Source: Acidobacteriota bacterium
Lineage (GTDB): Bacteria > Acidobacteriota > Vicinamibacteria > Vicinamibacterales > JAHECP01
Assembly: GCA_024641665.1 (NCBI GenBank)
Contig: JAHECP010000003.1
Span: 31,697-37,127, forward strand
Direction of reading: 5' to 3'
DNA: 5,431 nt
Both the position numbers and the translations under genes were made by a program. Each line of letters opens with the position of its first letter. Position 1 is the first letter of the stretch. The notes below the pieces were generated by a model. The model saw nothing but the letters and a program-made list of their open reading frames with translations. It was not told the origin of the DNA and made no database searches. This document shows, in pieces, positions 2,199 through 4,828 of this stretch.

Positions 2199-3248
2199 AT
2201 GTACACCCCCCAAGTGTTCTCGATGGACGGTGTGGTGGTGGGCCAGAGCGCCCGGATGCGCGCCGTCTTCGACTTCGTGCGGGTCATCAGCGACAGTCAC
2301 AGCACGGTGATCGTCACGGGCGAGAGCGGCACGGGCAAGGAAGTCATCGCGAACGTCATTCATCAGGCCAGCCCGCGGCGCCATCATCCGTTCGTGCCGG
2401 TGAGCTGCGCGCTGTTCTCCGACACGCTGATCGAGACCGAGCTCTTCGGGCACGAGCGCGGCGCGTTCACGGGCGCGATCAAGGATCGGCCGGGGCGGTT
2501 CGAGCTGGCGCAGGGCGGCACGATCTTCCTCGACGACATCGACGACGTGCCGTCCTCGGTGCAGGTGAAGCTCCTGCGCGTGCTGCAGAACCGCACCATC
2601 GAGCGTGTCGGCGGGACGCGGACGATTCCGGTCGACGTCCGGGTGATCACCGGGGCGAAACGCGACCTGAAGCAGCTCGTGGCCGAGGGCCGGTTCCGCG
2701 AGGATCTCTACTACCGGCTCAACGTGCTGCCGATCGTGCTGCCGCCCTTGCGCGAGCGTCGCGAGGACATCCCCGTGCTCATGGAGCACTTCCTCCGCCG
2801 CTTCTTCCGGGCCCGCGGTGAGGACATGCCCGAGATCGCGCCCGTCGTCCGCCAGGCCTTCCTGCAGTATCCGTGGCCGGGCAACGTCCGCGAGCTCGAG
2901 AACGCGTGCGAGCGCATCGCGCAGACCTGCCAGTGCGGCACGGTGCGGGTGGGCTGCGTGGCGTCGAGCGTGCTGTTCCAGGGCGACGGGCGCGGGCCCG
3001 CGGAGGCCCCCGCCGAGGAGGATCTGGCGCCGGTCTCCTCCGGCCTGTCGCTCGACGAGCGGCTGCGCGAGGTCGAAGCCAACCTGATCAGCTGGGCGCT
3101 GCGCATGAGCACCGGCAACAAGTCGAGGGCCGCCGAGCTGCTGCAGATCAAGCGCTCGACGCTCGGCGATCGCATCAACCGATGCGGGCTGGGCAAGCTC
3201 GTCACCGACGGTGAGGCCGACACGGTGGCCGCCGGCAGCCTGTCGTGA
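2199..3248 (+). CDS. Sigma-54-dependent transcriptional activator A, AAA+ plus Fis-HTH only (no N-terminal regulatory domain)
   Basis: 349 aa. The AAA+ core begins about 15 residues after the Met. Motifs: Walker A GESGTGKE, canonical GAFTGA, Walker B IFLDDIDD, ERVGGTRTIPVDVRVITGAKRDL, FREDLYYRLNV, WPGNVRELENACERI, and HTH TGNKSRAAELLQIKRSTLGDRINRCGL. The start is 16 nt after the nfu-like stop and is supported by alignment with the paralogue N-terminus. Confidence 0.93.
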   Translation: MYTPQVFSMDGVVVGQSARMRAVFDFVRVISDSHSTVIVTGESGTGKEVIANVIHQASPRRHHPFVPVSCALFSDTLIETELFGHERGAFTGAIKDRPGRFELAQGGTIFLDDIDDVPSSVQVKLLRVLQNRTIERVGGTRTIPVDVRVITGAKRDLKQLVAEGRFREDLYYRLNVLPIVLPPLRERREDIPVLMEHFLRRFFRARGEDMPEIAPVVRQAFLQYPWPGNVRELENACERIAQTCQCGTVRVGCVASSVLFQGDGRGPAEAPAEEDLAPVSSGLSLDERLREVEANLISWALRMSTGNKSRAAELLQIKRSTLGDRINRCGLGKLVTDGEADTVAAGSLS

Positions 3249-3274
3249 CGCCCGGATGCCGGGAGGAGTCGAAC

Positions 3275-3679
3275 GTGAAGGAGACGCGGTACGGCCTCGG
3301 GATCGACGTGGCCACGGGATTCGATGAGACGGTCGGGCGCGTGACCGACGCGCTCAAGGCCGAGGGCTTCGGCGTGCTGACGACGATCGACGTGCAGGCG
3401 ACGCTGAAGCAGAAGCTGGATCGGGACTTCCGGCAGTACGTGATTCTGGGCGCCTGCAACCCCCACCTCGCCAGCCGGGCGCTGGACGCCGAGCTCGAGA
3501 TCGGGCTGCTGCTGCCCTGCAACGTCATCGTGTACGACCGCGGCGACGGTCGCACCGCCGTGTCGGCCATGGCGCCGATCCCGGCGATGGGGATCGTGGG
3601 CAACGAGACGCTGAAGGCGGTGGCCGTCGAGGCCGACGCGCGGCTGCGCCGCGCGCTCGGGTCGCTCGAGTCGAAGTAG
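3275..3679 (+). CDS. DUF302-family protein (function unknown)
   Basis: 134 aa counted from GTG 3275, which is preceded by a strong SD GGGAGGAG (3261-3268). Family-typical segments: YVILGACNPHLASRAL and LLLPCNVIVYD; the size is typical. An alternative in-frame GTG at 3245 would overlap the upstream TGA as GTGA, so the start is uncertain by 10 codons. Confidence 0.85.
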   Translation: MKETRYGLGIDVATGFDETVGRVTDALKAEGFGVLTTIDVQATLKQKLDRDFRQYVILGACNPHLASRALDAELEIGLLLPCNVIVYDRGDGRTAVSAMAPIPAMGIVGNETLKAVAVEADARLRRALGSLESK

Positions 3680-3823
3680 CCGCGGCCCCGCCGTCGCATC
3701 GGATGTCGACGCGCTGGAGGAGCGCCGGACGGCCCCGCGCCGCCCGGCGGCAGCGCCAATCGTAGCGACTGGCCCCGACCCGCCGCCGGGAGCGACCGGG
3801 CCTTCGAGTACTCGAGGACCGCC

Positions 3824-4828
3824 ATGCCGGATCGAGGTACCTTCTCCATCGACTCGGTCGTCGTCGGGCGCAGCCCTCGCATGCGCGCGGTGTTCGACTT
3901 CGTGCGCGTCATCGCCGACAGCGACAGCAGCGTGCTGATCACCGGGGAGACCGGCACCGGCAAGGAGCTGGTCGCCAACCTGATCCACTACTCGAGCGCC
4001 CGCCGGCACCGGCCGTTCGTGCCGGTGAGCTGCGCGATTCTCACCGAGACGCTGATCGAGTCGGAGCTGTTCGGCCACGAGCGCGGCGCCTTCACCGGGG
4101 CCATCAAGGACCGGCCCGGGCGCTTCGAGCTGGCCGAGGGCGGCACGATCTTCCTCGACGACATCGACGACATCCCCAGCTCGGTGCAGGTGAAGCTGCT
4201 GCGCGTGCTGCAGAACCGCACCGTGGAGCGCGTGGGCGGCACCCGCGCGATTCCGGTGAACGTGCGGGTGATCACCGGCTCGAAGCGCAACCTCAAGCAG
4301 CTCGTGGCGGAAGGGAAGTTCCGCGAGGACCTGTACTACCGGCTCAACGTGGTCCCGATCGTGCTGCCGCCGCTCCGGGAGCGGCGCGAGGACATCCCGA
4401 TCCTGACCGACCACTTCCTCGGCCGCTACTTCCGCGAGCGCGGGGAGGACCCGAAGCCGTCGGCCTCGGCGGTGCGGCAGGCGTTCCTCGGCTACGCGTG
4501 GCCGGGCAACGTGCGGGAGCTCGAGAACGCGTGCGAGCGGATCGCGCAGACCTGCACCTGCGACCAGGTGCGTCTGGGCTGCGTGCCGGCGAGCGTGCTG
4601 TTCCACCCGCAGCTCGAGGTGGCCGAGCCGGTCATCGAGATGAGCGCGCCGCGCCCGGCCGTGTCGCTCGACGAGCGGCTGGCCGAGGTGGAGTCGCGGC
4701 TCATCACCTGGGCGCTCAAGGTGAGCCACGGCAACAAGTCGCGCGCGGCGGAGGTGCTGAAGATCAAGCGATCCACGCTCGGCGACCGCATCAAGAAGCT
4801 CGGCCTCGATCACCTCGAAGTCAACTGA
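3824..4828 (+). CDS. Sigma-54-dependent transcriptional activator B, sensor-less paralogue of activator A
   Basis: 334 aa from ATG 3824, preceded by GAGGA (3814-3818). Motifs: Walker A GETGTGKE, GAFTGA, IFLDDIDD, RVITGSKRNL, FREDLYYRLNV, WPGNVRELENACERI, and HTH HGNKSRAAEVLKIKRSTLGDRIKKLGL. By hand count, 205 of the first 260 residues are identical to activator A with no gaps. Confidence 0.93.
   Translation: MPDRGTFSIDSVVVGRSPRMRAVFDFVRVIADSDSSVLITGETGTGKELVANLIHYSSARRHRPFVPVSCAILTETLIESELFGHERGAFTGAIKDRPGRFELAEGGTIFLDDIDDIPSSVQVKLLRVLQNRTVERVGGTRAIPVNVRVITGSKRNLKQLVAEGKFREDLYYRLNVVPIVLPPLRERREDIPILTDHFLGRYFRERGEDPKPSASAVRQAFLGYAWPGNVRELENACERIAQTCTCDQVRLGCVPASVLFHPQLEVAEPVIEMSAPRPAVSLDERLAEVESRLITWALKVSHGNKSRAAEVLKIKRSTLGDRIKKLGLDHLEVN

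Follow-up and report, generated by a model that had tools for sequence, protein, structure and literature searches.

The stretch of DNA considered here (the window) comprises 5,431 nucleotides (nt) from an Acidobacteriota bacterium of the Vicinamibacterales, positions 31,697 to 37,127 of the forward strand of contig JAHECP010000003.1 (assembly GCA_024641665.1). It has a G+C content of about 70% and carries six genes, all on the + strand, among them two sigma-54 activators in tandem, A and B, neither of which has a sensor domain of its own. We lean towards the view that the window is a merger of two old paralogous modules, and that its activators belong to an undescribed class that would be coupled to Nfu and gated by an iron-sulfur (Fe-S) cluster or by redox state, with a separate small Nfu iron-sulfur carrier as the sensor. 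The features on which the argument draws are, in order along the window:

330..1685, + strand: NtrC-type response-regulator sigma-54 activator with receiver, AAA+ and HTH_8 domains (Pfam Response_reg, Sigma54_activat, HTH_8).
1769..1778, + strand: dyad GGAATATTCC, 81 nt 5' of the -24 element of the nfu promoter, where it may serve as an upstream activator site.
1850..1865, + strand: TGGCACGCTGGTTGCT, predicted sigma-54 promoter of the nfu-A(-DUF302-B) operon, matching TGGCAC-N5-TTGC perfectly (zero mismatches).
1958..2182, + strand: nfu, encoding a single-domain Nfu protein (NifU C-terminal domain) of 74 residues with a cluster-binding CXXC (GMCAGCPSA); PF01106, E = 1.8e-24.
2199..3248, + strand: activator A, 349 residues, an AAA+ sigma-54 activator without a cis sensor domain, with HTH_8 (Pfam, BLASTP, motifs, tree).
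2907..2957, + strand: codons of the four cysteines of A, C237, C244, C246 and C253 (alignment).
3275..3679, + strand: DUF302 protein, 134 residues (144 from an alternative GTG at 3245, which overlaps the stop codon of A); PF03625, E = 2.3e-25.
3824..4828, + strand: activator B, 334 residues, from the sister family and built like A (Pfam, BLASTP, tree).
4882-4889: GGATTTCC, the second match to GGA[AT]{2,5}TCC, at -34 from the GNAT promoter.
4916..4931, + strand: predicted sigma-54 promoter of the GNAT-fold gene, TGGTATCGGTGTTGCT, two mismatches to the consensus.
4945..5394, + strand: conserved 149-residue protein with a predicted GNAT fold (AlphaFold2 and Foldseek).

Each of the two sigma-54 activators is complete, with an AAA+ core and a DNA-binding domain, and neither has a regulatory domain in cis. 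Pfam matches Sigma54_activat (PF00158) from residue 14 on in both proteins, with E = 1.2e-66 in A and 2.7e-68 in B, then AAA_lid_14 and then HTH_8; it finds no receiver, GAF or PAS domain in either, and both genes are maximal open reading frames that cannot be extended upstream. The remark of the first-pass annotation, made from the letters alone, that the AAA+ core begins soon after Met1 with no regulatory domain before it is thus borne out. Its other descriptions of the pair were equally sound: the copies are offset by 1625 nt, each follows a small gene (for an Nfu-like protein of 74 residues and a DUF302 protein of 134, both identified by Pfam), the segment KRSTLGDRI is identical in the two, and the linker between AAA+ core and helix-turn-helix (HTH) domain differs in sequence and in length. 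Its hand count of 205 identities in an ungapped alignment of the first 260 residues comes to 204/260 on recounting, and BLASTP gives 74% identity over 328 residues. As is characteristic of bacterial enhancer-binding proteins, a Fis-type HTH_8 domain is present and -24/-12 promoters lie nearby, at 1850-1865 and 4916-4931.

The ATPase core is intact in outline and unusual in detail. GAFTGA and Walker A are preserved in A and B, the former in 120/120 A-type homologues, and the arginine fingers and sensor II are kept in both proteins alike. Walker B reads IFLDDI, with DD rather than the canonical DE, in 119/120 A-type homologues (codons at 2532-2537 and 4157-4162), and sensor I reads GAK or GSK (2649-2660 and 4274-4285), as against ATN in the NifA and NtrC-type activators compared. 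Across the whole family a Ser (2403-2405 and 4028-4030) stands in place of the glutamate-switch Asn, the partner of the Walker B glutamate in PspF. These departures in Walker B, sensor I and the glutamate switch occur together family-wide, and A and B lack the canonical hhhhDE with a sensor-I Asn. Since the E108D variant of PspF still activates transcription on duplex DNA (PMC4132715), we read the DD Walker B as a variant active site and not as a dead one.

Directly after the sensor-II helix GNVRELEN, both proteins carry the motif C-x6-C-x-C-x6-C, formed by C237, C244, C246 and C253 in A and by the same residue numbers in B. It is present in 119/120 A-type homologues, invariant in the 57-sequence alignment of both families that served for the invariance check, and found at every family locus as against 0/78 generic activator loci. 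The metagenome loci counted below come from a survey in which contigs were scanned for CERIAQTC codons and the neighbouring genes were classed by tblastn; the 78 unrelated, generic loci that form the negative control come from a scan of genome contigs with protein A, which is dominated by generic motifs such as RFREDLYY and has the true family loci L003 and L004 among the matches listed.

By tree and gene order, A and B are two old paralogous families, normally found at separate loci. The best 120 matches of A, all of which are at least 70% identical to it, and the best 120 matches of B show zero overlap; the split between the families has a neighbour-joining bootstrap of 99/100, and five diagnostic alignment columns part A-type from B-type proteins, with S43 against T43, LF72-73 against IL72-73 and RC324-325 against KL324-325, among them Cys325 of the A-type. 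This residue (3171-3173 in the window) is an invariant extra cysteine at the end of the HTH domain, where A-type proteins read NRCGL and B-type proteins KKLGL. A-type and B-type proteins share one recognition helix, IKRSTLGDRI. Their settings differ as well. In Vicinamibacterales and Acidobacteriia assemblies, A-type genes follow a divergent PAS histidine kinase, a single-domain receiver, an NtrC-type activator and nfu, in that order, while B-type genes stand between a divergent nfu and a homologue of the 149-residue GNAT-fold protein.

Only the nearest relatives of the window, L083 and L084, join the two settings in the order kinase, receiver, NtrC-type activator, Nfu, A, DUF302, B, which the window itself shows from the NtrC-type gene onwards. 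The B gene of L083 is 95% and that of L084 88% identical to that of the window, and the two loci served as proxies from which its wider surroundings were read. Among metagenome loci that carry A alone and have at least 1.7 kb of sequence downstream, none (0/26) has a B gene there. The tandem state is rare and recent, confined to one shallow lineage, and the paralogy itself is old; a recent tandem duplication was considered and rejected on the tree split (99/100) and on the different conserved contexts of the two families. The first-pass annotation had left it to phylogeny whether A and B are an ancient conserved pair or a recent duplication: the families are indeed ancient, but they are not conserved as a pair, being in tandem only in the window's close relatives. 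It had also named, as a finding that would speak against its proposal, orthologous loci with one activator and without the small genes. Loci with a single activator do occur, but Nfu is kept at them.

The conserved partner of these activators is, on the evidence of synteny, Nfu. The window protein is a lone domain (86.1 bits to PF01106, with a gathering cut-off of 27) that matches the NCBIfam NifU and NfuA models over the domain only, far below their equivalog cut-offs, and its CXXC is kept in 72/72 Nfu homologues. Wherever an A-type gene has at least 330 nt of sequence upstream, nfu lies directly before it on the same strand (52/52 loci), and no Nfu homologue occurs within 8 kb at any of the 78 unrelated activator loci. 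In most of 61 loci 1-16 nt part the nfu stop codon from the projected start of the activator gene, the gap in the window measuring 16 nt; the two genes are probably translationally coupled. B-type genes are less uniform: among 21 loci, 11 have a divergent Nfu, one has Nfu on the same strand, three, of the window-type lineage, have DUF302 upstream, and six have none of these. The Nfu proteins themselves fall into an A-linked and a B-linked group, with mean identities of 79% and 82% within the groups and 65% between them, and with CAGC against CVGC as a group-diagnostic form of the CXXC; Nfu co-diversifies with its activator.

Fusions point in the same direction. A search with the C-terminal 130 residues of A against 1.84 billion representatives found a NifU domain (assigned by Pfam) fused N-terminally to a four-Cys activator in two separate clusters, P0276 (447 residues) and P0295 (428 residues), that is, at the very end where other activators bear their sensor domain. 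P0295 is an intact open reading frame (L208, 3855-5141, on a 9.3-kb contig), and its neighbours are a divergent NtrC-type activator gene, a MamS/MamX-like gene and, 2.6 kb downstream, a DUF302 gene (7725-8120). The earlier suggestion that the small proteins are trans-acting inputs of the activators accordingly survives for Nfu, with its 52/52 synteny, its gaps of 1-16 nt, its separate sequence groups and its two fusions, and is not upheld for DUF302, which lies upstream of B only in the window's lineage.

The DUF302 gene (88.7 bits to PF03625 against a cut-off of 23) is a lineage-specific insert between A and B. Apart from the window, L083 and L084 alone have it in that position, L103 and L115 being partial cases, and it stands directly upstream of B only in the window's lineage (L083, L084 and, in part, L115). 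Elsewhere it is found loosely nearby in L120, L141 and L208, in the first two of these on the opposite strand and 1-2 kb from A-type genes, and it may be a loose member of the regulon rather than a partner of B; the literature mentions DUF302 only in descriptions of gene neighbourhoods. Between DUF302 and B lies a spacer of 144 nt (3680-3823). We considered a structured RNA or terminator there and rejected it, as the fold z-score is -0.03, no terminator is present and the length varies among relatives. No sigma-54 element lies upstream of B in this unstructured, variable spacer, and the simplest reading makes B a member of the nfu operon.

The promoter predicted for that operon lies 93 nt before the ATG of nfu, and an equivalent element lies 50-100 nt 5' of nfu, on the same strand, in 5/5 other A-type modules examined (L083, L084, L001, L002 and L003); no sigma-54 promoter was found before the divergent nfu of B-type modules. 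A GGAAWWWTCC dyad stands 81-103 nt 5' of the nfu promoter in 6/6 A-type modules. In the window, the pattern GGA[AT]{2,5}TCC has two matches only, at 1769-1778 and 4882-4889, each upstream of one sigma-54 promoter. In the search for a common binding site of A and B, GGAAW-type half-sites were seen to recur 5' of GNAT-gene promoters, but no single conserved dyad came to light. Sigma-70 promoters were detected nowhere in the window, a negative of little weight given the E. coli-type consensus of the scan.

At the far end of the window, the 149-residue protein has, according to its AlphaFold2 model (mean predicted local distance difference test score, pLDDT, 86.6; predicted template-modelling score, pTM, 0.81), a GNAT fold. 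It has no Pfam or NCBIfam match, and a profile search of PDB sequences returned noise only; in a Foldseek search of the PDB, the top 50 matches are all GNAT acetyltransferases (best E 4.1e-6, template-modelling score about 0.6), and one of the 14 family members weakly matches Acetyltransf_9 (E = 0.03). Strand 4 and helix 3 are joined by a variable loop in which no clear acetyl-CoA-binding Q/RxxGxG/A motif is seen. The gene lies downstream of B-type genes in 20/33 loci, and its promoter, which has two mismatches in the window, has none or one in 14/16 orthologous loci. Counted from where the -24 element begins, an in-frame start codon (ATG or GTG) follows after 28-31 nt in 16/16 loci (the window, L004, L083, L085-L087, L110, L138, L147, L158, L161, L173, L177, L184, L199 and L206), and a near-leaderless transcript is therefore predicted; so short a 5' leader is unusual for a sigma-54 transcript. 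We regard the GNAT-fold gene as a probable direct target of B, and perhaps of A too. In L084 a remnant of it lies beside B (10957-11190; 78 residues, 38% identical), with no sigma-54 promoter before it and with a hemerythrin-like gene after it on the opposite strand; the presumed target can evidently be lost.

At the other end, the NtrC-type activator gene is a conserved upstream neighbour of the nfu-A unit, being 66-70% identical and in the same position in L001-L003, L083 and L084, where it adjoins the divergent PAS histidine kinase and the single-domain receiver. Just 5' of this gene the window contains an 88-nt element twice (1-88 and 138-225; 99% identical, spacing 137 nt), where L083 has a gap of only about 85 nt between the receiver and activator genes. 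Its sole other match among all the loci compared is weak and partial (L083, 17244-17342), and it may be a small mobile or repetitive element. Further afield, the genes near related loci include those for Crp/Fnr regulators, NorB, ScdA, hemerythrin, Usp, multihaem cytochromes, an MtrB/PioB-like porin, FeoAB and NosL, an assortment that fits a redox, iron or oxygen signal. Some of these neighbours carry sigma-54-like promoters: at L083 13420 and 12457 and at L084 12603 and 16723, elements with 1-2 mismatches lie just 5' of a multihaem cytochrome and MtrB/PioB-like porin operon, a radical-SAM gene and feoB. It is possible that an extracellular electron-transfer and iron-uptake regulon is attached to the Nfu-activator system.

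By sequence, the closest described family is NifA. TIGR01817 is the best NCBIfam match of A and B, and the A. vinelandii NifA chain 9qq6_C the best PDB match; their scores of 349.5 and 356.1 nevertheless fall well short of the NifA cut-off of 528.85, over a match that covers only NifA positions 193-433, and both lack the N-terminal GAF domain that NifA has. In a tblastn of A against plasmids, NifA was not top-ranked. No nif genes lie near A or B, unlike NifA, and the Nfu partner is specific to the A/B family. The comparison is of interest on account of the oxygen-sensitive NifA proteins of alpha- and beta-proteobacteria, in which four cysteines are essential for the oxygen response and have been proposed to hold a metal cluster whose identity is not known (PMC10590331, PMC3854256). 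In S. meliloti NifA (sequence from pSymA) these cysteines follow the pattern C-x11-C-x19-C-x4-C, which runs from sensor II into the beginning of the interdomain linker, as against C-x6-C-x-C-x6-C in A and B; they occupy the same region at different positions, and in a pairwise alignment the first falls on Y224 and the second on A236, no cysteine coinciding with another. The likeness to NifA is hence one of mechanism and location only, and A and B are not members of its family.

In architecture A and B rather resemble PspF and HrpS, which likewise consist of AAA+ and HTH domains only, for which trans control by a separate small protein, PspA or HrpV, is to be expected (PMC3105312). The partner in the A/B family is an Fe-S carrier domain, at times fused N-terminally, and not a PspA-type or HrpV-type protein: no PspA-family or HrpV-like gene was found among the window proteins (Pfam, NCBIfam) or in the neighbour lists of related loci. 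The PF01106 fold and the CXXC are shared with NfuA and NFU1, from which the window Nfu differs in being a lone domain of 74 residues that gene order ties to a transcription factor. Fe-S sensing by sigma-54 activators is not new in itself, VnfA being an Fe-S-sensing activator of this kind. In OrpR of Desulfovibrio vulgaris, a sigma-54 activator under Fe-S control, a [4Fe-4S] cluster is held in a cis N-terminal PAS domain (PMC8359166); A and B have no cis sensor, and their candidate sites are the four cysteines next to the lid and the separate or fused Nfu. A literature and full-text search for links of Fe-S clusters, cysteine motifs or Nfu/NifU to sigma-54 activators brought to light no description of an Nfu-linked activator.

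The interpretation offered by the first-pass annotation was that A and B form a hetero-oligomer like HrpR/HrpS. In its strict form, an obligate hetero-hexamer on common sites, with Nfu as the input of A and DUF302 as that of B, we think it quite improbable. The resemblance is real in that HrpR and HrpS are likewise tandem, sensor-less and probably co-transcribed paralogues, which act as a mixed ring (PMC3105312), that in the window, L083 and L084 the A and B genes lie in tandem and probably on one transcript, and that both proteins lack a sensor domain in cis; given their identical recognition helices, A and B may share DNA sites, and mixed rings are possible. The system differs from HrpR/HrpS in that the tandem is restricted to a single shallow lineage and absent from all 26 A-alone loci, B-type genes normally standing apart, each with an Nfu and a target gene of its own. 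Against the pair hypothesis speak also the old split between the families (99/100) and the retention of Walker A, GAFTGA, arginine fingers and sensor II in both copies, with no complementary degeneration, and the proposed input of B is not conserved beside it outside the window's lineage.

Two further explanations concern what Nfu and the cysteines do. It is conceivable, if unlikely, that Nfu is simply cargo, the first gene of an operon for Fe-S maintenance or stress that the activator controls, and that structural zinc is what the four cysteines bind. As a class, Nfu proteins are general carriers of Fe-S clusters, as the NCBIfam domain matches also indicate, Cys4 zinc sites are common, and every A-type module examined has a sigma-54 promoter upstream of nfu. 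Against this stand the N-terminal fusions in two separate clusters, the co-diversification of Nfu with the activator and the consistently tiny distance between nfu and A, and the B-type nfu is divergent from B with no sigma-54 promoter found before it. The least probable of the explanations, in our estimate, is a thiol-disulfide switch in which the four cysteines would sense oxidants through reversible disulfides and the CXXC of Nfu would serve as a dedicated, thioredoxin-like reductant. Both the CXXC and the closely spaced cysteines of the activator are invariant, as such a switch would have them, and AhpC/redoxin fragments, Usp and Cu-Zn superoxide dismutase genes lie near the loci of relatives; against this, PF01106 domains are characterised as Fe-S scaffold or carrier domains and not as oxidoreductases, and the FeoAB, multihaem cytochrome and ScdA neighbours fit the Fe-S alternative at least equally well. 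Nothing in the present data directly separates the thiol switch from an Fe-S site.

We thus return to an activator class coupled to Nfu, which would work as follows. The upstream PAS kinase, receiver and NtrC-type activator would switch on the sigma-54 promoter at 1850, and Nfu, A, DUF302 and B would be made as one transcript from it. Nfu would hold or deliver an Fe-S cluster that engages the four-Cys site, and the occupancy of the cluster would report oxygen, nitric oxide, oxidants or iron supply, gating either hexamer assembly or the coupling of the ATPase, as has been proposed for oxygen-sensitive NifA. Either the cluster-bound or the cluster-free form could be the active one. Active A and B would then open sigma-54 promoters, including that at 4916 before the near-leaderless GNAT-fold gene. 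In the lineage of the window, B would have lost its own divergent Nfu, would sit in the nfu-A operon and would probably share the Nfu of A, which would explain the adjacency of A and B without a mixed ring. More tentatively, as a possibility and not an expectation, we would put forward the broader proposal that the NifU/Nfu domain is a previously unrecognised sensory module of sigma-54 activators, usually separate and occasionally fused, that passes Fe-S status to the invariant Cys4 site beside sensor II.

Several points weigh against this scheme. The metal content of the site, the contact between Nfu and activator and the signal are all things that we infer from comparative genomics only, and the four cysteines could hold structural zinc or form disulfides instead of binding an Fe-S cluster. 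The AlphaFold2 model of A, built with the 57-sequence alignment, is too poor to judge cysteine geometry (mean pLDDT 52), probably because all rows of the alignment are more than 67% identical. In the fusion P0276 an H replaces the first Cys of the CXXC. The six of 21 B-type loci with no Nfu nearby suggest that an adjacent Nfu may not be strictly necessary for B-type proteins; one encoded elsewhere is possible. The assignment of the promoters at 1850 and 4916 to A, B or the NtrC-type activator is only putative.

Sigma-54 activators are a classic example of AAA+ machines gated by signals, and nearly all their known inputs come through a cis N-terminal domain or from a small number of trans-acting inhibitors, PspA, HrpV and NifL among them. 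An Fe-S carrier domain as input would, if confirmed, be new, and would link the supply of Fe-S clusters, or damage to them, directly to sigma-54 transcription. The tandem pair of the window is better read as two modules with one common Nfu than as the two halves of a mixed ring. The Cys4 site lies in the region of the unexplained cysteines of oxygen-sensitive NifA, and a small system of two proteins could make that old question testable. To our knowledge, regulation in soil and sediment Acidobacteriota is almost unstudied. Database searches with A and with B each return at least 8000 proteins, the top ones 70-96% identical, and the findings point to an abundant, undescribed variant of sigma-54 activator, small in size, sensor-less, extremely conserved and very common in the Acidobacteriota of soils and sediments.

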